Shown piece by piece: positions 1 through 43,602 of a stretch of DNA of 64,000 nucleotides. The number at the start of each line of letters is the position of its first letter. Positions within the stretch are counted from its first letter, which is position 1. The DNA comes from an uncultured delta proteobacterium (GTDB lineage: Bacteria > Myxococcota_A > Polyangia > Polyangiales > Houyiibacteriaceae), in NCBI GenBank assembly GCA_963699755.1, contig CAVOVB010000001.1, forward strand, positions 1,472,001 to 1,536,000. Reading direction: 5' to 3'. The notes beneath the pieces were generated by a model. The model worked only from the letters and a program-made list of their open reading frames with translations. It was not told the origin of the DNA and did no database searches. The position numbers were made by a program, and so were the translations under genes.

Positions 1-2
1 GG

Positions 3-290
3 CGCGCCCTTCGGCTCTGCCCGAAGTTCCACGACATTCGTCTCGAGCTCGCCAGGTTGCTCAGGCTTCGCGGCAACGCACACGGGGCCCGCGAGGAGCT
101 GACGCTCATCCTGCAGCTCGACCCGGAGCACCAGGATGCTCGTACGCTCTTGGGCGTCATCGAAATCGAGACCGGGGACCATGGTCAGGGCGTTCGTCAC
201 CTGCAGGCAGTTGTCGCGCAATGCGCCGACCATCCGGTCGCCCGGGCCTACCTCGAGCAAGCGGCTTCGGACTACCAGCGCGCGTCCTAA
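3..290 (+). CDS. TPR-containing protein, C-terminal fragment (truncated by window edge)
   Basis: Frame is open from position 3. Helical TPR-like pattern (ILQLDPEHQDARTLLG, CADHPVARAYL); stop at 288-290. Confidence 0.6.
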   Translation, partial: RALRLCPKFHDIRLELARLLRLRGNAHGAREELTLILQLDPEHQDARTLLGVIEIETGDHGQGVRHLQAVVAQCADHPVARAYLEQAASDYQRAS

Positions 291-345
291 GCGTCGTATC
301 GGATCGCGTTGTAGACGTTGCAAACGGTGCCACACTACCCCCCAA

Positions 346-2391
346 GTGGCTCCATCAGTCCTTCTCCTCGACGACGACGCTCAGTTTCGCGCGAGCGTCA
401 TCCCGGCGCTCGAAGCGCAGGGTCTGCGGGTTTTGGTCGCGACCAAGGGCAGCGTCGCTCGAGCCTTGATCGCGCAAGAAGCGCCCTCGCTGCTCGTCGT
501 GGACGGCTTGTTGCCGGATACCAACGGAATCACTTGGATTGAAGATCTGCGACGAGAGGGGTTCGAGACGCCGATCATCTTCGTTTCGGCATTTTATCGA
601 GACCTCCCGACCTTCAGGCACCTCACCCACGAGCTCGACGTTGCCAAGGTCTTCCACAAGCCCGTCACGGTCGATCGATTCGCCCGCGCAGTGGCAAACG
701 TCGTGGCGAAGCACCGAAGCGATGCGCCAGTTGCTGCAGCTGCGCCTAGGTCCAACGACGATACCGCCGAAGAAGTGCTCTTCCCCGACGAGGCTTCAGC
801 CGCCAGCGTAGACTCCAACCGCGCCAGGGAGTCGTACCTAAGCCTTCTTCCGATCGCTGCCGACAACCTCTCCGGCGCGATTCGTCGCGTGCATTCGGAG
901 GCCGAGCGAACCAGTGTGGTATCGGACGCGCTTCGTCAGGCACACGAGCTTCAAGGCGCCGCACAGGCGCATGGTCTGAACGAGATCTCCGATGCCGCAG
1001 GTCGCATCGAGCTAGAGCTCCGGCAGCTGCAGGAGTCGGGCCGCCTCGATTGGACGACGATGTTCGAATCGATCGATTCGGTGCGCGCTCACGCCGCCGC
1101 AGCCGTGGGCCGTCCGAACGATACTCCGTCCATGGCCGCCGCCCCGCCTTCGGTCACGCCGGCCGCAAGCTTCTTCCTTCATCGTCCGATTCCCAAGGAT
1201 TTCGTGCCGACGCTGCTCGCGCTCGAGGACGACCCGGCGATGATCGCCTACCTCCGGTCGGCTATCGACGAGGTGCTCGTGCACCTCAGGCCGGTCTCCA
1301 ACGTCGACGAAGCCCTCAAGATTGCGGCGCGAAATGCGCCGACGGCGGTGCTCGTGGGCTGGCCCCTTCAGGACAGAGAGGCGCTCACCCGTTTCCTTCC
1401 CCTCTTCCGCAGCTTGCAGGGGTGCGCCGAAACGCCAGTCATTCTGCTCTCCGTTGACGACGACCCGCACACTCGAGCTCACGCGGCTCAAGTCGGGGTC
1501 GACATCTTCCTACCGCACCCGATCGAGCTCGTACGATTGCACCACGCGCTGAGCACGGCAGTCGAACGCGCGATGACCCCGCGTCCGAAAGTCGCCGTGC
1601 TTCGCGACCCCGACGCTGCGCGGCTCATCGGAGAGTCGGGCATCGAGTGCTTGCTCTACTTCAGCCTCGATGAGCTCTTGCGCGAGATCGACGTGCAGTG
1701 CCCAGACGCAATTCTGTTGGGGTCGAGCGTGACCGGGAAGCAGGTGCCGGCGATCATTCGCATGTCTGCCTGGGATTCGGACTTCGGGCTGCTCTGCTTC
1801 GACGACTCGCCGCTCGCCTACGAGCGCGAGATCAGCGAGTGCTTGATTCGATCATCGGGTTGGTTGGCGCACCTGCACGCTGAAGCCGATCGAATGGCAC
1901 GACTCCGCCGGCAGCAATTGCGTTGTAGCCAGACGGGCTTGCTGACGCGCCCGGCGGCGGTCGCGGCACTCGAATTCGGACTTTCATCCGCTCAGCGTCA
2001 CGGACGCACCTACTCGATTGGTCTCATGCGGACGACCGGCCTAGATGGGCTCGACCACGTCCAGGCACGCCGATTACGGACCTACCTGGGCCGAATGATC
2101 TACGGGCGGTTCCGGCGCGAAGACGTACGAGGGCGCTGGGATGAAGACACCTTCGTCGTTGGCTTCGATGCGCAGAGCGCACGCGCGATCGTGGACGTCA
2201 TCCGCAGGCTTCAGTCCGACCTGGAGGCGCGCCGCATCCGGCAGCCCGAGGAGCTCTCCTTCTTGCACGTGGCGGTCGGCCTCGCCTCCTACCCCCTCGA
2301 TGGCGATACCATTAGGGCCCTCATTCTCGCGGCCCACGAGCGCCTGGAAGCGGCGGTCGCACGCGATCCAGGGGCCCTCGTTTGGCGCTAG
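346..2391 (+). CDS. Multi-domain response regulator: REC - Hpt - atypical REC(s) - degenerate GGDEF
   Basis: REC motifs (LLLDDD, VVDGLLPD, FVSA, FHKP); Hpt motif AHELQGAAQAHG; second REC (LALEDD) lacks the acceptor Asp; C-terminal QTGLLTR...RREDVRGRWDEDTF...VGLASYPLDG. Start moved to GTG 346 because the ORF-track start overlaps the upstream gene. Confidence 0.8.
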   Translation: MAPSVLLLDDDAQFRASVIPALEAQGLRVLVATKGSVARALIAQEAPSLLVVDGLLPDTNGITWIEDLRREGFETPIIFVSAFYRDLPTFRHLTHELDVAKVFHKPVTVDRFARAVANVVAKHRSDAPVAAAAPRSNDDTAEEVLFPDEASAASVDSNRARESYLSLLPIAADNLSGAIRRVHSEAERTSVVSDALRQAHELQGAAQAHGLNEISDAAGRIELELRQLQESGRLDWTTMFESIDSVRAHAAAAVGRPNDTPSMAAAPPSVTPAASFFLHRPIPKDFVPTLLALEDDPAMIAYLRSAIDEVLVHLRPVSNVDEALKIAARNAPTAVLVGWPLQDREALTRFLPLFRSLQGCAETPVILLSVDDDPHTRAHAAQVGVDIFLPHPIELVRLHHALSTAVERAMTPRPKVAVLRDPDAARLIGESGIECLLYFSLDELLREIDVQCPDAILLGSSVTGKQVPAIIRMSAWDSDFGLLCFDDSPLAYEREISECLIRSSGWLAHLHAEADRMARLRRQQLRCSQTGLLTRPAAVAALEFGLSSAQRHGRTYSIGLMRTTGLDGLDHVQARRLRTYLGRMIYGRFRREDVRGRWDEDTFVVGFDAQSARAIVDVIRRLQSDLEARRIRQPEELSFLHVAVGLASYPLDGDTIRALILAAHERLEAAVARDPGALVWR

Positions 2392-32169: not shown

Positions 32170-33096
32170 ATGTACCAAGCTCTCCTGTCTCGCCATCTGC
32201 GATCGGCGATCGGCGCGATTTGCATTGTCGTGCTCGGCGGCTGCGACGTCGCCAAGTTCACCGCTGACTCGACGGCGGGCCTGTTCACCCGCGCGGCTCC
32301 GGCGTTCGAATCGTACTGGGACTACGATCTGGCAGGCGAGGCGCTTCCGGCGACGGTCGTGCAGTTCGAAGGGATCCTCCGAGTCGTCCCCGACAACGAG
32401 GCCATCTTGGCGCAGTTGGCGCAGGCCTATGTCGCCTATGCGTACGGCTGGGTCGAGGCCGAGGTCGAGGAGCTCGAGTTCGAAAGCGAGTACGAAGAAG
32501 CCGATGTTCAACGCCGGCGGGCGCGCACGATGTATCTGCGCGCGCTCGACCTCACCCGGCACTGGGTCCGGCTGCACAACCCCGACGTCGACCTTGCCGT
32601 CAAGGGAAGTGTCGACGACCTCGAGGCCTGGTTGGAGACGGCGTTCACAGAGAAGGGCGACGCCGAGATGTTGCTCTGGCATGGATACGCCTGGGGTTCG
32701 TACATCAATGCGGCCAAGGACGACATGGAGGCCATCGCAGACCTCGAGTACGCAAAGGCCTTCGTCGCCCGCTCCATCGAGCTCGACCCGGACTACTATA
32801 ATGCGGCTGGCTACACGTTCATGGGCGTGGCCACCGCGTCCGAGATGGCCGGCGACATGGAACAGGCGAAGGCTTACTTCGAGAAGGCGCTGGCGCGTAC
32901 CGAACGGCGTGCGTTGCAGATCCAGCTCAACATGGCTCGCTACTACGCAGTCAAGGAAGGCGACAGAGAGCTGTTCGACAAGCTCCTCTCCGAGGTGATG
33001 GACGCGCAAGACCCGCTTCCCGAAGCGCGACTGGCCAATCGGATGGCCCGCGTGCGCGCTGCCATGTACATCGAGAACGCAGACCAACTTTTTTAG
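32170..33096 (+). CDS. TRAP transporter TatT (T component) family lipoprotein
   Basis: Lipobox LGGC; DYDLAGEALPA...YAYGWV...ELDPDYYN...AKAYFEKAL...RLANRMA; directly upstream of the TRAP Q and M genes. Confidence 0.8.
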   Translation: MYQALLSRHLRSAIGAICIVVLGGCDVAKFTADSTAGLFTRAAPAFESYWDYDLAGEALPATVVQFEGILRVVPDNEAILAQLAQAYVAYAYGWVEAEVEELEFESEYEEADVQRRRARTMYLRALDLTRHWVRLHNPDVDLAVKGSVDDLEAWLETAFTEKGDAEMLLWHGYAWGSYINAAKDDMEAIADLEYAKAFVARSIELDPDYYNAAGYTFMGVATASEMAGDMEQAKAYFEKALARTERRALQIQLNMARYYAVKEGDRELFDKLLSEVMDAQDPLPEARLANRMARVRAAMYIENADQLF

Positions 33097-33169
33097 TGAT
33101 TTCGGAGAGTACCGAAGTTATTGTGCGTAGCTCCAGCGTTCCGAACCAAGCGGTTGCGGAGAGGCGAAC

Positions 33170-33847
33170 GTGAAGTACATCCGGCATCTAGACAGAGGGC
33201 TCGCACGCGGCGAGGCGGCGATTGCCGCCGCGGTCCTTCTGCTCATGATCGCGGTTGCGGCTACGCAAGCGGCGCTCCGCAATCTCACAAACCTCGATTT
33301 CGATTGGGCGAACCTCGTGCTCGAGCGCATGGACTGGGCCGACTCTTTCCTGCAGAAGGGGACGCTCTGGCTGGCCTTCTTCGGGGCTTCTCTTTCGACG
33401 TTTGACGAGAAGCACATCGCCATCGACGTGGTTCCGCGGATCTCTCCGCCCCGTGCCAAGCAATTGTTTCGAGCCATCGTTTGCACCTTCTCAGCGGTGA
33501 CGTGTTTCTACCTCGGCCGTGTCTTCTGGCTGTCGGTTCTCAACAATGCGCAGGAGATTCCGCTCGAGTATTCGGTGCTCGGACCCAGCGACGAAATGAT
33601 CCACATCTGCTCGGCGCCTCTTCAGATCTTGGCCGATGCAGGGCTCTCGAGGCCAAATCTGTTCTGCGCCGTAAGGCGCGTGCTCGACGTATTCGGCGTC
33701 GAGATGTCGACGCCGGACGTTGCCCTACAGCTCATCGTTCCCTCGATGTTCATTTTCATGGCCGTGCGATTCTTGAGTCGTGCCATTGCGGCGAGCGTGT
33801 CGTTCATCAGCAATCGCCCACCCGAAGACCGCGAAGGGGAGGGCTGA
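33170..33847 (+). CDS. TRAP transporter small permease (DctQ-like)
   Basis: Four TM segments; LWLAFFGASL...KHIAIDV. Confidence 0.85.
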   Translation: MKYIRHLDRGLARGEAAIAAAVLLLMIAVAATQAALRNLTNLDFDWANLVLERMDWADSFLQKGTLWLAFFGASLSTFDEKHIAIDVVPRISPPRAKQLFRAIVCTFSAVTCFYLGRVFWLSVLNNAQEIPLEYSVLGPSDEMIHICSAPLQILADAGLSRPNLFCAVRRVLDVFGVEMSTPDVALQLIVPSMFIFMAVRFLSRAIAASVSFISNRPPEDREGEG

Positions 33848-33850
33848 GCG

Positions 33851-35329
33851 ATGGACGGGCTTTGGATCATCCTCCTCATCGCGCTGGCCGTTCTCGGCGC
33901 GCCGCTGTTCGCCATCTTTGGTGCGGCCGCGATGCTGCTCTTCGGAGGCCTCGCCGACACGAGCATCACGGGCACGGCCAACGACGTTTTCAGCGAGAAG
34001 TTCGCTGACTCCCCACTTCTGGTGACGATTCCCTTGTTCACTTTCGCGGGCTATCTGCTGGCGGAGAGCGGCACGCCGCATCGTTTGGTCAAGGTCTCTC
34101 GTGCTTGGCTTGGCTGGATGCCTGGTGGCTTGGCGATTGTCTGCCTCGTCGCCTCGGCCTTCTTCACGACTTTCACCGGCGGCAGCGGCATCACGATCGT
34201 CGCCATCGGCGGCCTTCTTTACCCGGCCCTCGTGGCGGACAAGTACGAAGAAAATTTCTCCCTGGGCCTGGTGACGACGGGTGGCTCGCTCGGCCTATTG
34301 TTCCCGCCGAGCGTGCCGATGATCATCTACGGTGTCGTCGCCGGCATCATGATCGAGAAGCTGTTTTTGGCGGGCTTGATCCCCGGCATCATCACCGTCA
34401 TCACGCTCGCGGCGTACAGCTCGGCCGCTGGCATCAAGAAGAAGATGCCACGCACCGGGTTTGATGTTCGGGAGGCGTTCAAGGCTCTCTGGGAGGCCAA
34501 ATGGGAAGCGCTGCTGCCGATTGCGCTGCTCGGCGGCATGTACAGCGGCCTCCTTCGAATCCACGAGGCGGCAGCGTTCACGGCGATTTACACCCTCGTC
34601 ATCGAGGTCTGGATCTACCGCGACGTAAGCTTTCGGGGCGACCTCCCGCGGATCATTCGCGAATCGATGACGCTGGTCGGCGCGATTCTCGCGATCTTGG
34701 CCACGGCGATCGGCTTCACCGCGTTCCTCATTCAGGCGCGCGTCCCGATGGCGATTCTCGACTCGATGGAGGGCTTCATCACCTCCCAGGTGATGTTCCT
34801 GATCGCGTTGAACTTCTTCCTCATCGGCGTCGGCATGTTGATGGATATCTTCTCTGCGATCGTCGTCGTGGTGCCGCTCATCGTGCCGATCGCGCTGAAG
34901 TTCGGCGTCGACCCGTACCACCTCGGCATCGTCTTTCTGCTCAACCTCGAGATCGGCTACATGACGCCGCCCGTGGGCCTGAACCTCTTCATCTCGAGCT
35001 TCCGTTTCAACAAGCCGATTACCCAGCTTTATCGAGCCGTCTTGCCGTTTATCGGGCTCTTGGGCCTCGCTCTGATCATCGTGACCTATGTCCCGTCCCT
35101 ATCGACCTGGCTGCCGAGCTTGGTCGAGACCAACGCGGTGAATCTCCACTCTCGGGACGATGAGATGGGCGACGGTGATGCGTACGATCTGGACTCGCTC
35201 GAAGGCGATGAGGAAGAGTTGAATCTGGACTCGCTCGAAGGCGATGAGGAGGAGCTGGATCTGGACTCGCTCGAAGACGATGAGGAGGAGCTCGACCTCG
35301 ACGCGATCGAGGCAGAGTCTCCTCAGTAG
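33851..35329 (+). CDS. TRAP transporter large permease (DctM-like) with acidic repeat tail
   Basis: IPLFTFAG, GSLGLLFPPSVP, LFLAGLIPG, EIGYMTPPVGLNLF. Confidence 0.93.
   Translation: MDGLWIILLIALAVLGAPLFAIFGAAAMLLFGGLADTSITGTANDVFSEKFADSPLLVTIPLFTFAGYLLAESGTPHRLVKVSRAWLGWMPGGLAIVCLVASAFFTTFTGGSGITIVAIGGLLYPALVADKYEENFSLGLVTTGGSLGLLFPPSVPMIIYGVVAGIMIEKLFLAGLIPGIITVITLAAYSSAAGIKKKMPRTGFDVREAFKALWEAKWEALLPIALLGGMYSGLLRIHEAAAFTAIYTLVIEVWIYRDVSFRGDLPRIIRESMTLVGAILAILATAIGFTAFLIQARVPMAILDSMEGFITSQVMFLIALNFFLIGVGMLMDIFSAIVVVVPLIVPIALKFGVDPYHLGIVFLLNLEIGYMTPPVGLNLFISSFRFNKPITQLYRAVLPFIGLLGLALIIVTYVPSLSTWLPSLVETNAVNLHSRDDEMGDGDAYDLDSLEGDEEELNLDSLEGDEEELDLDSLEDDEEELDLDAIEAESPQ
35186..35311 (+). repeat. 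36-bp tandem repeat (3 full copies plus a partial copy) encoding (D/N)LDSLE(G/D)DEEEL
   Basis: Unit gatctggactcgctcgaaggcgatgaggaagagttg at 35186, 35222 and 35258; diverged partial copy at 35294. Confidence 0.9.
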
Positions 35330-38394: not shown

Positions 38395-39042
38395 CTAGGG
38401 AGCGAGGCGCTGGATTCGCCAGCCTTCGCCGTCCCGATCGTATTGAAAGCGATCGTGAAGCCGATCGGGCTGACCCTGCCAGAACTCGATCGAGCTCGGC
38501 ACCACGCGGAATCCCCCCCAAAAGGATGGCAGTGGGACTTCTCCATCGGCGAACTTGCGCTTCATTTCATCGAGCTTCATTTCGAGCGCCTTGCGTGAGG
38601 TCAGCACCTGTGATTGCTTCGACACCCAGGCCCCAAGCTGGCTACCTCGGGGACGGCTGATGAAATACTTCGCTGTTTCGGCGCTGGAGACGCGCTCCGC
38701 GATGCCGTTGATCTCGATCTGCCTTCCGAGCTCCCGCCAGAAGAACAGGAGCGCCACTTTGCGATTGTCTTGGATCTCGCTCGCCTTGCGGCTTCCGAGA
38801 TTGGTGAAAAACACGAAACCGTCGCGATCGAAGAACTTCAGGAGGACCGTCCGAGCGCTAGGCGCACCTTTGGCATCGACGGTGGCCAGGGCCATGGCGT
38901 TGGGCTCCACATCGACGTGTTGGATCGCTTCGTCGAGCCATCGTTCGAACTGAACGAAGGGATCGGCGTCGAGATGCTCCCTCTTCAGAGGGCCGCGAAC
39001 ATAGTGGTGTCTCGATTGATGGAGGGAGTCGCGGTCAGTCAC
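38395..39042 (-). CDS. pdxH: Pyridoxine/pyridoxamine 5'-phosphate oxidase
   Basis: PNAMALAT, RTVLLK, FFTN..SRK, SRPRGSQLGAW, EFWQGQPDRLHDR, RLAP. Start set at GTG 39042. Confidence 0.95.
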   Translation of the reverse strand: MTDRDSLHQSRHHYVRGPLKREHLDADPFVQFERWLDEAIQHVDVEPNAMALATVDAKGAPSARTVLLKFFDRDGFVFFTNLGSRKASEIQDNRKVALLFFWRELGRQIEINGIAERVSSAETAKYFISRPRGSQLGAWVSKQSQVLTSRKALEMKLDEMKRKFADGEVPLPSFWGGFRVVPSSIEFWQGQPDRLHDRFQYDRDGEGWRIQRLAP

Positions 39043-40627
39043 GTCGGGTGGCCTCAAAGACGTAGCGTGCCACGTCGTCGATCTGTTCGGGGGTGAGCGT
39101 TTCGCCGAATGGGGGCATGGCACCGACGCCGTTGGTCACAGCCGCTTCGACTTGCTGGACGCTGCGCGCGAGCTCGTCGAGGTTCGGGCCGACAGCACCG
39201 GTCGCTTCGGCGTCGGCGAGCGTGTGGCAGGTTGCACAAGGGGGTGGTGCGGCTTCGGTGAAGACCTTGCGACCTCGCTTGCCCGAGTCGGACAATTGCA
39301 CGGGCTTGCGGGGCCCCTGTGGCGCCTGATCATGCTCGGGGGGCGGCGTGAGGCAGAGCTCGTCGTCGGAGCTGCATACCTGCACCGTGACGCCCATGTC
39401 CCGCCAGCTGTTGTTGCCGTAGCCCCGCTCGTTCTCGTTGCGGAGCTCGGGCTGCACGTCCCCGTCGACGTTCGTTGCGCGGCTGTAGAGCTTGACTGGA
39501 CCGGGGGCCTTCTCGAGCTCGAGCGCGAACAAGCGCCAGGCGTAGCGTCCGAGCTCGGGGCCGACGAAGCGTGCCCGCTGCCAGTGTTTGCCATCGGTCG
39601 ACACCTCGACCTTGGAAACCGCCTTTGTGCCTCCGAAGGCGACACCGGTGACGCGGAGCTTGCCCGCCAACACGGGGGTCTGGTCGGTTGGCATGGTAAT
39701 GAACGACTTGACCGGCATCTCCCACATGGCGGGCTGGTCGGGCGTGCCCTTCTCGCCGATGGGGCGCATTCGGTAGCCGGTCTGTTGGATTTTGGCTGGG
39801 CCTTGCTCTGCGGTGAAGGCGAGGTTCTTCACGAACTTGATCTGGTTGCAGCCAAAATAGCCAGGGACGATCAGTCTCAGAGGTCCCCCGTGGGAGCGCG
39901 GAATCGGCTCGCCGTTCATCTCCCAGGCGAGGAGACAGTCGTCCAGTGCCTTCGCGATTGGAATGGAGCGTTCGACGATCACCTGATTGCGATCGAGGCC
40001 AGCCGGGATGGGCTCGCCACCGGTCGTCGTGAGGTAGCGCATGCCCTTCACTACGCCGCCGAACTGCTCGACGACGGCGCGCAAGGGGACGCCACTCCAG
40101 ATCACACAGCCGGCGGCGCCCACCCCCCAGCGCGAGCCACTCGGGCCGTGCTTGTAGTATTTGCGGCCGTTGCCCGAGCATTGGAGCACGGTGGCAATGG
40201 TCGCGAGTCCGATGCGCTTGAGCGCGTCGACACGAATCTCGCCGGGCTGCTTCACGCCCTCGATGCGCGTGGTCCAGCCGTCGCGGTCGGCGACGAATTC
40301 AGGCGGCGGCAGCGGAAGATTCTGGCGAACGAACAAGACGCTGCTGGCCGTGAGCACGCTGGTGCCAAGCTTCTCGCGTCGGGTTTCGAGCGTGAGCGGG
40401 TTGTCGCCGTGCTTGATGAAGTTCGCCGGGTCTTTGTTGTCGGGGAGCGCTGGTGCCGCGGGCGCCGGCTCAGAAGACGCGTCAGGTGCCGAGGGCTCTT
40501 GTGGCGCCGTCGCCTCGCGGCAAGCGGCCACGGACGTCAGCAAGGCGCTACCGCCAAGGCCCAGTGTGCCGAGGACGAACTGGCGGCGTCCTTCTCGTGG
40601 GGAGTGTTCGTCGTGCGTGCTGGTCAT
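39035..40627 (-). CDS. Tat-exported sulfite oxidase-family molybdoenzyme (SorT-like) fused to C-terminal cytochrome c (SorU-like)
   Basis: RRQF twin-arginine signal then VAAC; LFVRQN, LQCSGNGR (Mo-ligand Cys), HGGPLRLIVPGY, dimerisation domain; C-terminal CATCH...GPNLD...MPPF. Start set at ATG 40627. Confidence 0.9.
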   Translation of the reverse strand: MTSTHDEHSPREGRRQFVLGTLGLGGSALLTSVAACREATAPQEPSAPDASSEPAPAAPALPDNKDPANFIKHGDNPLTLETRREKLGTSVLTASSVLFVRQNLPLPPPEFVADRDGWTTRIEGVKQPGEIRVDALKRIGLATIATVLQCSGNGRKYYKHGPSGSRWGVGAAGCVIWSGVPLRAVVEQFGGVVKGMRYLTTTGGEPIPAGLDRNQVIVERSIPIAKALDDCLLAWEMNGEPIPRSHGGPLRLIVPGYFGCNQIKFVKNLAFTAEQGPAKIQQTGYRMRPIGEKGTPDQPAMWEMPVKSFITMPTDQTPVLAGKLRVTGVAFGGTKAVSKVEVSTDGKHWQRARFVGPELGRYAWRLFALELEKAPGPVKLYSRATNVDGDVQPELRNENERGYGNNSWRDMGVTVQVCSSDDELCLTPPPEHDQAPQGPRKPVQLSDSGKRGRKVFTEAAPPPCATCHTLADAEATGAVGPNLDELARSVQQVEAAVTNGVGAMPPFGETLTPEQIDDVARYVFEATRRD

Positions 40628-41688
40628 GATCCATTCTCTGCCCGTGTCGTCGCCGGCCAGGCGCGTTCGAAGCAGCTGGCGAGCTCCTGTGCGGCGGGCT
40701 TGCCGCGTGGGGTGAAGCCGAGGTCGCGCGGTCCGCCGAAGCCAAACCAATTCCAAACATAGAACCCCGAGATGCTCGGGGTCTGCGCGAAGGCGTCGCA
40801 GAAGCTTCGGTAGAGGCGCTGCTGGAGGCGAGCATCGGGTCGCGCGTGAGACCGATCGTCCCATGGCTGGTCGGCCGCGCTGCTTTGGCTGGGGTAGCCG
40901 ATTTCGGTGACTAGGACGGGCTTTCCGACACGCTGTCGAAGCGCATCGATTTTGGCGCGCGGGGCCCCCCATGCGCGGGTCAGCGCCTGATCGGAGGGCG
41001 TCCGGTTCTCGCTCGTGAGCGGGAAGTAGGCGGTCAGGCCGACCTCGTCGAGGGCGTCCCAGAACTCGATGGCCTGGGTTCGGTCCCAGTTGGCCGAATA
41101 GCTGAGCGCTCCCAAAAAATCGCCGCGCAACTCGGAGATCAGGGCGCGCCACTGGTCTTGGTAGGGTTCGAGGGACCCGAGCTCGGAGCCGACGATGAAA
41201 CGCCTGGCGCCGGCGCTTTGCGCGAGGCGGGCGAGCGGCAGAATGAAGCGCCGGTACGATGCGAACCAGGCATCGAGCCCGTCCGCTGGCGCGATGACCC
41301 CGCGCCAATCATACGGGCCTCGCCTCAGCAGGCGGACCACCGGCATCAACGCTGCGCGCATGCCGGCCTGCTGCACCTGGATGAGGGTGCGCGCCACGGT
41401 CGCGTGGCTTGGCGAGCGACCGGGGCTCAGCGCGATGTCCGAGGCAAAGCGGTCCGTCTGGTAGGCGTTGACCACCACGAGCACGTCGGTCGCGCCTCGT
41501 GCGCGAATCTCTTCGATGAGCGGCCCATAGTCCCAGTCTGGATCGGTCGCGAACAAGCCGAGGGCAACGCCACGCACATAAGAGCGATCATCGACGCTCT
41601 GCCTCGATCTGGACGTGCCACGAGCAGCGCCGAACGCGCTTCCCAGAAGCAGGGCGAACGCCAGTGCTGCAAGTGCCGCCCCACGCAC
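40624..41688 (-). CDS. Secreted glycoside hydrolase family 113-like TIM-barrel protein
   Basis: Signal peptide; WRGVIAP, WFASY, IVGSEL (acid/base Glu), YSANWD, AYFPL, VTEIGY (nucleophile Glu), FTPRGKPA. Start set at GTG 41688, 1 nt after the upstream stop. Confidence 0.8.
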   Translation of the reverse strand: MRGAALAALAFALLLGSAFGAARGTSRSRQSVDDRSYVRGVALGLFATDPDWDYGPLIEEIRARGATDVLVVVNAYQTDRFASDIALSPGRSPSHATVARTLIQVQQAGMRAALMPVVRLLRRGPYDWRGVIAPADGLDAWFASYRRFILPLARLAQSAGARRFIVGSELGSLEPYQDQWRALISELRGDFLGALSYSANWDRTQAIEFWDALDEVGLTAYFPLTSENRTPSDQALTRAWGAPRAKIDALRQRVGKPVLVTEIGYPSQSSAADQPWDDRSHARPDARLQQRLYRSFCDAFAQTPSISGFYVWNWFGFGGPRDLGFTPRGKPAAQELASCFERAWPATTRAENGS

Positions 41689-41689
41689 T

Positions 41690-43546
41690 TTAGGGCTCCA
41701 CCGGAAGGTCGAGGCGGCTGTACTCCGCCCAGGAGCCGTCATAGTTGAGCATTTGATCTGGGCGGAAACCAAGCTGCGCAAGGGCGAAGTAGACCGCGGC
41801 CGAGCGCGTACCTGATTGGCAGTAGGTCACCACGGGCGTCTCGCTTCCTACGCCGTGGCCTGCCAAGAGCACTCGGAGCGCGTCGGGCGAGCTCAGACGA
41901 TGATCGCCAGCTTTGTCGCGCAACACCTCAGCCCAGTCGAGGTGCACTGCGCCAGGAATGTGGCCTGCGCGGGCGGCTTTGGGATGCTTCTCGCTGCCGT
42001 CGAACTCGATCGCGCTCCGCGTATCGATCAGCTGCACGCGGGGGTGCTCGGCGATGAAGGCCGAGGTTTCGGGCCAGTGTTGGGAGGGGGGCGATGCTGG
42101 TGCACGCAGGGCGACGTCACCGGTTTCCACTTGTAGGCCGTCGCCACCAGCGACGTAGTGGCCCGCCGCCTTCCAAGCTTGCAGCCCTCCATCGAGCACC
42201 CGTGTTTCGAACCCCGCGACTGCCTTCAGAGTCCACCAGAGTCGGTAGGGTTCGGGTCCGCCGTCGCCATAGAGCACCACGGTGCTGTCTCGATCCACGC
42301 CTCGATCGCGAAGCATTCGTTCGAGCTCGCCCGCAGAACGGGAGAGGCCTGGGATCTCTTCGCTGCTCGAGTAGTCACCGCGGTACACGCGTCGCGCGCC
42401 GGGAATGTGTCCCAGCGCGAAGCGGTCTTCCGGCCGCACGTCGATCACGACCAAGCTGTATGCGCCCAAGGCCTTGGCGAGCTCCGGCACGCTGACCATG
42501 CTGTCGGGGTCCAGGTAGCCGTCCGCACGGGCCCGACTTCCGAAATGTGCAATGGCGTTCTCCGCTTCCTGGGGGCTTGGTGAGTACGCATTCATCGCCG
42601 GGAACACTCCGGTCGGCTGCGACGCCGCGGCGACCTCACCCAGCATTGGGGTCTCGGGCCGAAGCTTGTGCGGCTCGCGCAGATACCAGGCTCCGGCCAT
42701 GACTAGGGCGCCGATGACGGACCAGACGATGGTGCTCTGCTTGGCGGGCGCCAGCCGTTGCAGCGGCCAGACCTCCTGGCTGAAGAAGTTATCGGGAAAA
42801 GTCTCCACGCCCTTGAAGCCCAGATGCGCAGGGGGTTCCGGCGGCATCTTCGCTGTGCCGAAGATCCAATCCCAGCAACTGAAGATGATCCCGTAGTTGA
42901 CCGTGGTCTTGGCAGTGCCCTCGTAGTCATGATGCCAGATGTGCATCCGCGGACTGTTGAGGACGTAGCGCCAAGGCCCATGGCCGAGGTCCAAGTTCGA
43001 GTGGTTGAGATGGCCGATCAAGGTGCCGAAGATCGCGTGAAACATCAGCGCCTCCCAGCGGAAGCCGAGGAAGACCAATGGGAGGTAGAGCACCGACTTG
43101 TAGACGATCACCTCGAGCCACGAAAAACGGAAGGAGACGATCCAGTCCATCTCGCCGTCCTTCACGCTGTGGTGCGCCTTGTGTAGCTCCCAGAGGAATG
43201 GAACTCGGTGAAGCGCGTTGTGGACACACCACTGAATGAAGTCGATGACGACGAGAGCCACGATGATCTGCGCCCAGAGCGGCCAATCCGCCGCGGCGTT
43301 GCGATACACTGCGTCGGTTAGCCCCTTGGCGCTGAGCCAGCGGTCGATGTAGGGCAGTATCCAGGTGCTGGCCAAGCCCGCGAGGAGAAGCCCGAGGAAG
43401 TGCCCGTTGAAGACGAGATGAATCAGGTCCGACCAGAGCTTGGGGCGCAGCTGTTTTTGTTCGGGTCGCCATGGGAAGAAGCGCTCGAGAAGAAATACCA
43501 GCCCGGACAGCGCCGCCAGGCTAATCGGGTACAGATAGGCCGTCAT
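41690..43546 (-). CDS. Fusion of sterol desaturase / fatty acid hydroxylase-family membrane enzyme with a tandem-domain rhodanese (sulfurtransferase)
   Basis: His boxes HNALH, HKAHH, HLNH, HIWHH; extra TM helix; two rhodanese repeats (GHIPGA twice), active loop YCQSGTR, terminal YDGSWAEY. Confidence 0.88.
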   Translation of the reverse strand: MTAYLYPISLAALSGLVFLLERFFPWRPEQKQLRPKLWSDLIHLVFNGHFLGLLLAGLASTWILPYIDRWLSAKGLTDAVYRNAAADWPLWAQIIVALVVIDFIQWCVHNALHRVPFLWELHKAHHSVKDGEMDWIVSFRFSWLEVIVYKSVLYLPLVFLGFRWEALMFHAIFGTLIGHLNHSNLDLGHGPWRYVLNSPRMHIWHHDYEGTAKTTVNYGIIFSCWDWIFGTAKMPPEPPAHLGFKGVETFPDNFFSQEVWPLQRLAPAKQSTIVWSVIGALVMAGAWYLREPHKLRPETPMLGEVAAASQPTGVFPAMNAYSPSPQEAENAIAHFGSRARADGYLDPDSMVSVPELAKALGAYSLVVIDVRPEDRFALGHIPGARRVYRGDYSSSEEIPGLSRSAGELERMLRDRGVDRDSTVVLYGDGGPEPYRLWWTLKAVAGFETRVLDGGLQAWKAAGHYVAGGDGLQVETGDVALRAPASPPSQHWPETSAFIAEHPRVQLIDTRSAIEFDGSEKHPKAARAGHIPGAVHLDWAEVLRDKAGDHRLSSPDALRVLLAGHGVGSETPVVTYCQSGTRSAAVYFALAQLGFRPDQMLNYDGSWAEYSRLDLPVEP

Positions 43547-43602
43547 TCAGGTTAGGGATAGCACGTCTTTTGCAAGTGATCGCGCCGTGGTATCACCCGG
43601 GG

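Follow-up and report, generated by a model that had tools for sequence, protein, structure and literature searches.

Most sulfur oxidisers in sediment metagenomes are heterotrophs without the Sox system. From thiosulfate the periplasmic rhodanese PspE makes sulfane sulfur, whose route into the cytoplasm is stated to be unknown (PMC10215317); entry by way of a rhodanese was also proposed for Sox-free Ruegeria, where, in the available text of the preprint, a knockout was without effect (bioRxiv 10.1101/2024.06.14.599071). Hand-over of sulfane sulfur to a persulfide dioxygenase (PDO) is described in the accessible sections of PMC9774590, and oxidation of sulfite with transfer of electrons to respiration in those of PMC4760952 and PMC3561395. 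The available part of one survey (PMC12345210) places SorA-type genes only in Myxococcota metagenome-assembled genomes (MAGs; 37/37 assigned) and records slow, unexplained thiosulfate oxidation. Here we analyze a predicted operon in a 64,000-nucleotide (nt) stretch of DNA, below called the window, which covers positions 1472001-1536000 of contig CAVOVB010000001.1 (contig C1) in the genome of an uncultured myxobacterium (the host genome; assembly GCA_963699755.1, completeness 100%, contamination 9%). The operon encodes a desaturase-rhodanese fusion, a GH113-like hydrolase, a SorT-SorU sulfite dehydrogenase fusion (SorTU) and PdxH (Table 1).

The first three genes apparently represent a conserved, undescribed variant of heterotrophic sulfane-sulfur and sulfite oxidation, in which two tightly kept enzymes have no explained role. 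The function that we regard as somewhat more probable than improbable is a Sox-independent unit for periplasmic cleavage of thiosulfate or polysulfide and oxidation of sulfite, which feeds a cytoplasmic PDO. The catalytic motifs of the fusion, the GH113-like protein and SorTU are intact. The four minus-strand genes are joined by a 1-nt gap (fusion/GH113, position 41689), a 4-nt ATGA overlap (GH113/SorTU) and an 8-nt overlap (SorTU/pdxH), as a preliminary description of the window had reported and the open reading frame coordinates confirm, and the GC content of the four-gene stretch resembles that of the remainder of the window. Judged by comparison of gene orders, the arrangement of the first three genes is not due to chance, since it persists in distant Myxococcota; adjacency in relatives is thus conserved for these three genes, but not for pdxH.

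Relatives of the desaturase-rhodanese fusion are encoded at 378 GTDB loci, and the counts given here are from the best 80 of the 378; of these 80, 47 lie outside the genus clade. Gene calls in all neighborhood surveys were made by a codon-score script, and the distant-locus rows include several near-duplicates and short contigs. A rhodanese is present in 35 of the 47 distant loci, with GH113 directly downstream in 25 of these 35. A sulfite-oxidase-family enzyme was found in 21 of the 35; ten of these enzymes are of the SorTU type (one truncated where its contig stops), and the other 11 belong to different types (32-37% identity), with a separate cytochrome and located upstream, downstream or divergently. 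Two unrelated types of this family substitute for each other beside the fusion. Altogether, 29 of the 35 loci carry a sulfite enzyme, DsrE, ArsR-rhodanese, YeeE/SulP or TauE (one DsrE is below cut-off), and further neighbors include PDO-like, SQR, DUF1641, Tll0287-like and HiPIP genes. At the 12 distant loci lacking a rhodanese, GH113 was never found and a sulfite-oxidizing enzyme (SOE) only twice. Tll0287-like heme proteins, some of them fused to a cytochrome, were observed after the sulfite enzyme at several distant loci (L071:12378-13070, L072, L088 and L096).

The same association was recovered starting from GH113. A profile applied at E 1e-75 detected the family in 43 of 301 genomes of the phylum, and the GH113-anchored check covered 39 genomes, 37 of these 43 that had previously been unexamined plus two others. 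Ten of the 39 have the full fusion, directly before the GH113 gene in all ten and across seven families; six of the ten contigs were already within the best 80 loci, and in three of the four new ones SorTU continues the run. Two of these (L283 and L284) have a single co-directional run of fusion, GH113, SorTU, PDO/rhodanese, YeeE-like, DUF6691 and SulP genes, preceded in L284 by an SQR-like match. As controls, desaturase, rhodanese or SOE matches were found beside other GH113-like genes at 0/22 loci, and matches to the sulfur-gene queries beside six further GH113-like genes at 0/6. The co-occurrence of desaturase-rhodanese fusions with sulfite oxidase-family, PDO, SQR and YeeE genes, for which the preliminary description had proposed a survey, is thus seen. 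Its suggestion of a Sox-independent sulfur module built on a rhodanese and a sulfite dehydrogenase agrees with the sulfane-sulfur neighborhoods and the swapping sulfite enzymes, except for the membership of pdxH.

The fusion protein contains an FA_hydroxylase domain (PF04116, residues 95-231; 97.9 bits, cut-off 31) followed by two Rhodanese domains. Out of 7999 candidate homologues 241 pass E 1e-20, and among the matches listed (120 of 241) nearly all are the same fusion, 55-91% identical to the query, with source names that indicate Myxococcota, Bradymonadia and similar MAGs. Each of the His motifs, like Cys576, is conserved without change in 46/46 aligned homologues, and by its motifs the predicted di-iron domain is an intact oxygenase. 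The structural model (predicted local distance difference test, pLDDT, 88.8), combined with hydropathy, gives membrane helices at residues 2-23, 48-73, 90-114, 143-159, 164-182 and 268-290. Loop 22-40 is rich in Lys and Arg (mean 4.9), loop 158-168 is almost without them (0.07), and the linker downstream of helix 6 is net acidic. The His motifs presumably lie on the cytoplasmic side, as in solved desaturases, so helix 6 would run outward. Separate rhodanese genes adjoining the desaturase (L122, L204 and L287) start with a lipoprotein- or Sec-type signal, as read by eye, which likewise argues for export, and the desaturase of L122 has no helix 6. We infer that the rhodanese part is periplasmic and the di-iron site cytoplasm-facing. 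The direct coupling of the rhodanese to the di-iron domain that had been envisaged is unlikely, because the two sites would then face opposite sides of the membrane.

The tandem rhodanese fold, with the catalytic Cys in the C-terminal domain, matches 8k55 (Z 31.0, root-mean-square deviation 2.1, 274 aligned residues) and resembles, among other rhodaneses, the C-S bond-forming EanB. Two candidate assignments were rejected: 3-mercaptopyruvate sulfurtransferase SseA (98.5 bits versus an equivalog cut-off of 250, and the loop CQSGTRS is unlike the SseA loop) and ornithine lipid hydroxylase OlsE (NF052566, 91.5 bits versus a cut-off of 475). Fold searches with the whole fusion returned matches to the rhodanese part, which filled the lists; a single-sequence model of one split desaturase reached pLDDT 48, and an Atlas search with the desaturase yielded generic sterol-desaturase clusters only. 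At two loci (L078:8879-8902 and L107:2773-2816) a frameshift separates the desaturase from the rhodanese, which is either a true split or a sequencing error.

SorTU combines Oxidored_molyb, Mo-co_dimer and cytochrome c domains, and is a predicted SorT-type sulfite:cytochrome c dehydrogenase exported by the twin-arginine (Tat) pathway. It scores 535.2 bits with the SorT model, a near miss of the equivalog cut-off (NCBIfam NF052247, 570 bits), versus 183 for SorA, 154 for SoxC and 26 for MsrP. The SorU-type cytochrome model matches at 101.7 bits (cut-off 100) in the fused region 452-523, and the best solved-structure match is 4pw3. The N-terminal part has a twin-Arg signal and a lipobox-like Cys36. 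Arg101, the Mo-ligand Cys150 and Tyr285 align with SorT, and the Tyr at this position we take to have an active-site role. Arg78 of SorT, the counterpart of Arg101, is an active-site residue according to the available part of PMC4760952. No other sulfite-oxidase-family match was found in the host genome.

The second protein of the operon has a GH113 TIM-barrel (PF22612, 143.5 bits, cut-off 27) with an N-terminal signal peptide, and some of its module homologues start with twin-Arg signals. Glu169 and Glu262, which we assume to be the catalytic pair, are invariant in 31/31 module copies. The possibility that this gene is a passenger, left open in the preliminary description, is unlikely because no other gene accompanies the fusion as constantly as GH113, in the distant loci as well as beside the full-length fusions. 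Complex prediction for the rhodanese and GH113 gave no answer (score 0.00). A commoner Myxococcota GH113-like paralogue (L214, L216, L220, L222, L224, L226 and L227) adjoins genes that we presume to be ftsEX/envC-like and mglBA-like, hinting that the GH113 family may have a role with cell-envelope glycans.

Within the genus, 36 genomes were surveyed, and close orthologues of SorTU were found in 16, of the rhodanese half in 17, of GH113 in 16 and of the desaturase half in 23. The rhodanese, GH113 and SorTU occur together in one set of 16 genomes, as direct neighbors in the window order whenever a single contig holds them; a 17th genome is truncated here by the end of its contig. A desaturase of 290-330 residues without the other parts, often at the same chromosomal site, is present in seven genomes and in an eighth whose contig is likewise truncated. 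On the PDO marker tree (34 rows; three genomes without the marker), the distribution of the block versus the desaturase-only state is patchy, requiring eight changes, no fewer than in shuffles. The short forms nest among fusions on the desaturase tree, and some retain linker remnants, which we interpret as repeated losses of the rhodanese, GH113 and SorTU with the desaturase retained intact. Of the 25 genomes with at least one module part, 19 have SQR-like matches, versus 0 of the 11 that lack all parts (kinship not corrected). Many relatives in the genus have a cluster of type III SQR, TusE and DsrE2-like genes (L263:5163-7214, L264 and L265), which tblastn did not find in the host genome.

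A similar association is observed in a Bacteroidota-type lineage, defined here, without taxonomy, as the 80 metagenome loci nearest to a Pontibacter protein. This protein, the best match among 136 plasmid records (40% identity to the desaturase), is encoded within a cluster of rhodanese, TauE, MBL, YeeE, DoxX and DsrE genes; in the second plasmid record, from Haliscomenobacter, only an MBL and an MFS gene stand alongside. With the plasmid locus subtracted, a single-domain rhodanese is present in 29 of the 80 loci, in many cases with a signal peptide and directly upstream, TauE in 13, a PDO-rhodanese in 12, YeeE in eight and a SoxB-like gene in seven. A sulfur-cluster gene is found at most three genes away in 40 of the 73 loci having at least three called genes. 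The order in L204 is SOE, cytochrome, tandem rhodanese, desaturase, and L131 likewise has an added SOE and cytochrome. GH113 is near the desaturase in three of the 80 loci (L169, L181 and L194). In L169, L181 and L207 the desaturase is located in an arsenosugar cluster of ArsM, ArsS, TIGR04282 and DUF547 genes, with GH113 two genes away in the first two. Overall, the pairing of desaturase and rhodanese occurs fused, split and order-swapped, in three desaturase subtypes.

The host genome has no match to SoxY, SoxB or SoxA/TsdA (PF13501, TIGR04486 and PF21342; positive controls were detected), and DsrA was not found in it. It does encode a run of DUF1641, SQR and Blh-like PDO (C1:816091-819863, equal to L126:6092-9864) and a cluster of PDO-rhodanese, YeeE-like, DUF6691 and SulP genes (C1:1820646-1824422). 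The duplicate of this cluster at C7:179464-183240 may belong to a second strain, since the assembly is 9% contaminated. Behind the DUF1641-SQR-PDO run comes another gene of the desaturase family, a distant one (27% identity to the fusion), and the same follower is observed in L266, not in L267. ArsS and TIGR04282 are above cut-off, and homologues of most other arsenosugar-cluster genes are scattered over the genome. ArsS is present in 34/36 genomes of the genus regardless of module state, and a second arsenosugar-cluster gene in 33/36; the co-variation of ArsS with the module is uninformative because of this near-universal presence.

In the mechanism that we propose, the desaturase-family domain would tether the tandem rhodanese to the periplasmic side of the inner membrane, and Cys576 of the rhodanese would take sulfane sulfur from thiosulfate or polysulfide and release sulfite, as the family chemistry suggests. 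Lipid-anchored SorTU would oxidize to sulfate both this sulfite and the sulfite that PDO produces and the cell exports, and its built-in heme would relay the electrons to the respiratory chain, as expected from the close homology to SorT and SorU. The sulfane sulfur would be delivered to the cytoplasmic SQR/PDO/YeeE system, which is encoded elsewhere in the host genome and in the same gene run in some relatives. For the di-iron domain the leading, though speculative, guess is a substrate within the membrane, either a lipid-soluble sulfane or a sulfur-lipid species, in place of the rhodanese persulfide itself, and the GH113-like hydrolase would be a coupled periplasmic partner acting on some glycoside.

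Several observations weigh against this thiosulfate/polysulfide mechanism. GH113 (25/35) is a steadier neighbor of the fusion than the sulfite enzyme (21/35), and thiosulfate chemistry assigns it no role; 14 of the 35 distant rhodanese loci, some of them on short contigs, have no sulfite enzyme. In 7-8 of the 36 genus genomes and in 12 of the 47 distant loci the desaturase occurs by itself, its His motifs intact, and is therefore of use even where the other parts are missing. Three genus genomes without the module have a 52%-identical SorTU in other contexts. Much of the Bacteroidota-type count is driven by single-domain rhodaneses, which are common genes, and the topology of the fusion was deduced from helices, from the bias in charge and from inspection of the split forms by eye. 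Finally, in Sinorhizobium meliloti, the home organism of SorT, sulfite derives from organosulfonates such as taurine, according to the available part of PMC4760952.

A rival explanation is the breakdown of organosulfur compounds, which gives all three proteins a job: GH113 would cleave S-linked or sulfurized glycosides or glycans, or free a sulfo-sugar, the di-iron enzyme would hydroxylate the carbon beside sulfur in a thioether or sulfonate lipid, the rhodanese would strip off sulfane sulfur, and SorTU would remove sulfite. Alkylglycerol monooxygenase acts comparably on ethers. The invariant Glu pair and the position of GH113 directly after 10/10 full-length fusions and 0/12 distant rhodanese-less desaturases fit this scheme, as does the induction of S. 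meliloti SorT by taurine degradation (in the available sections of PMC4760952). We nevertheless consider it unlikely, as the neighbors are inorganic sulfane-sulfur genes (SQR, PDO, DsrE, YeeE, ArsR-rhodanese), no sugar transporter, sulfonate or sulfatase genes recur among them (FGE-sulfatase domains are in just two scanned neighbors), and GH113 is found in so few Bacteroidota-type loci. A bolder reading of the operon, rather unlikely in our estimate, makes the desaturase subfamily a new membrane di-iron sulfur enzyme that, with the exported rhodanese and a GH113-like thioglycosidase, strips off and oxidizes the sulfur of polysulfides or of sulfurized organics in sediments (S-linked sugars, lipids), while tethered SorTU conserves the electrons; if true, it would supply a Sox-independent path, so far missing, by which heterotrophic Myxococcota and Bacteroidota turn thiosulfate or organic sulfur into sulfate.

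Sulfur could instead be incorporated: a glycoconjugate or lipid of the periplasm, such as a thio-arsenosugar or thio-glycolipid, would receive the sulfane sulfur of thiosulfate from the rhodanese and be tailored by GH113 and the desaturase, while SorTU would do no more than clear the sulfite by-product. The arsenosugar-cluster loci, two of them with GH113 nearby, the arsenosugar-cluster homologues of the host and the likeness of the rhodanese to EanB all point in this direction; yet ArsS does not co-vary with the module, no Ars gene recurs beside the fusion in Myxococcota loci, and PDO, SQR and YeeE neighbors indicate oxidation of sulfane sulfur, which makes such a biosynthesis quite unlikely. 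Equally improbable seems co-regulation without chemical coupling, where one shared stress would call on the rhodanese and SorTU for sulfur detoxification and on the desaturase and GH113 for remodeling of envelope lipid and glycan, and where the fusion would serve only to anchor the rhodanese. It would account for the desaturase kept alone after repeated loss of the other parts, the paralogues beside mglBA/ftsEX-like genes (labels presumed, as above) and the two active sites on opposite membrane sides. However, a pairing that is fused, split and order-swapped in three desaturase subtypes exceeds anchoring needs, because lipoprotein signals already anchor the split-form rhodaneses. As for PdxH, its functional membership in a four-gene system, for instance by supplying pyridoxal phosphate or flavin chemistry, is very improbable. 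It is suggested by the overlap with SorTU and by the fact that this gene, whose product is above the NCBIfam PdxH cut-off, is the only pdxH copy found in the host genome. The survey largely refuted it: pdxH is downstream of SorU in 3/23 loci having sequence past SorU and in 0/7 outside the genus, so it is not a conserved member, and other module-bearing genomes have close orthologues on different contigs. The preliminary description's fourth operon member is, as far as gene order can tell, a passenger.

Table 1. Coordinates of the operon genes (window positions), of protein features (residues) and of related host genes (contig positions)
Feature	Position	Strand	Details
Desaturase-rhodanese fusion (P0001)	41690..43546	-	618 aa
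P0001 desaturase-family di-iron membrane domain	residues about 1-265		His motifs 109-113, 122-126, 179-182, 202-206
P0001 sixth membrane helix	residues 268-290
P0001 tandem rhodanese	residues about 330-618		active-site loop CQSGTRS, Cys576
GH113-like hydrolase (P0002)	40624..41688	-	354 aa, start GTG
SorT-SorU sulfite dehydrogenase fusion, SorTU (P0003)	39035..40627	-	530 aa
P0003 heme motif	residues 464-468		Met504
pdxH (P0004)	38395..39042	-	215 aa, start GTG; pyridoxamine 5'-phosphate oxidase
Arsenosugar-cluster homologues of the host genome	C3:777636-778538, C1:958447-959702, C3:538293-540726

A promoter scan at the operon found none (0.4 expected), and terminator predictions there were at chance level. 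The start of the operon is separated by less than 60 nt (window 43547-43602) from a divergent acyl-CoA dehydrogenase gene, and no sigma-70-like promoter was found in this gap. One metatranscriptome run shares 0.06 of words with the stretch; its contigs give thin coverage almost throughout and are mostly less than 90% alike, and the fusion/GH113 junction is spanned by a single 173-nt contig, too little for showing co-transcription. Elsewhere in the window (32170-35329) are the TRAP-T transporter genes TAtT, DctQ and DctM, the C-terminal end of DctM consisting of repeated acidic units.

A literature search turned up no description of the desaturase-rhodanese fusion, of sulfur clusters containing GH113 or of SorT fused to SorU; subscription reviews of sulfite-oxidizing enzymes and the supplements of PMC12345210 (Table S7 and others) were outside its scope, so that the SorT-cytochrome fusion may already be on record and these proteins may be listed in the supplements. 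The operon offers a concrete, expressible three-gene candidate for the gap in how sulfane sulfur made by a periplasmic rhodanese crosses the membrane. A large "sterol desaturase" subfamily (the 378 GTDB loci) and a GH113 subclade are placed in sulfur neighborhoods unexpected from their annotation, and SorT joined naturally to SorU offers a ready-made model of tethered electron transfer.

Compared with the GH113 beta-mannanases (PDB 3civ and 4cd6), the second protein is similar at E 5e-25 and its glutamates align with conserved Glu positions, but it is a distant homologue only, from a subclade tied to the fusion and with no recurring mannan-use genes beside it. The desaturase part retains all four His motifs of the fatty acid hydroxylase/sterol desaturase superfamily, whereas its NGHFLG-type motif and location beside sulfur genes set it apart as a distinct subfamily. 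SorTU is close to SorT and SorU of S. meliloti (PDB 4pw3 and 4pw9; described in the available part of PMC4760952): residues 64-415 match SorT at E 5e-123, the cytochrome domain 450-524 matches SorU at E 8e-21, and the active-site Arg, Mo-ligand Cys, heme motif and export signal are kept. It differs in being one polypeptide with a lipobox-like anchor, and its partners are the rhodanese fusion and GH113, whereas S. meliloti SorT is induced with taurine genes. With the heterotrophic SQR-PDO-rhodanese pathway (as given in the accessible parts of PMC9774590 and PMC12345210) and PspE, the locus would have the outline in common: a rhodanese shuttles sulfane sulfur between thiosulfate or polysulfide and thiols, PDO makes sulfite and an SOE makes sulfate, and the host genome has SQR and PDOs. 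In contrast to these systems, the rhodanese described here has two domains, is tethered by a predicted di-iron enzyme and is encoded together with SorTU and GH113.

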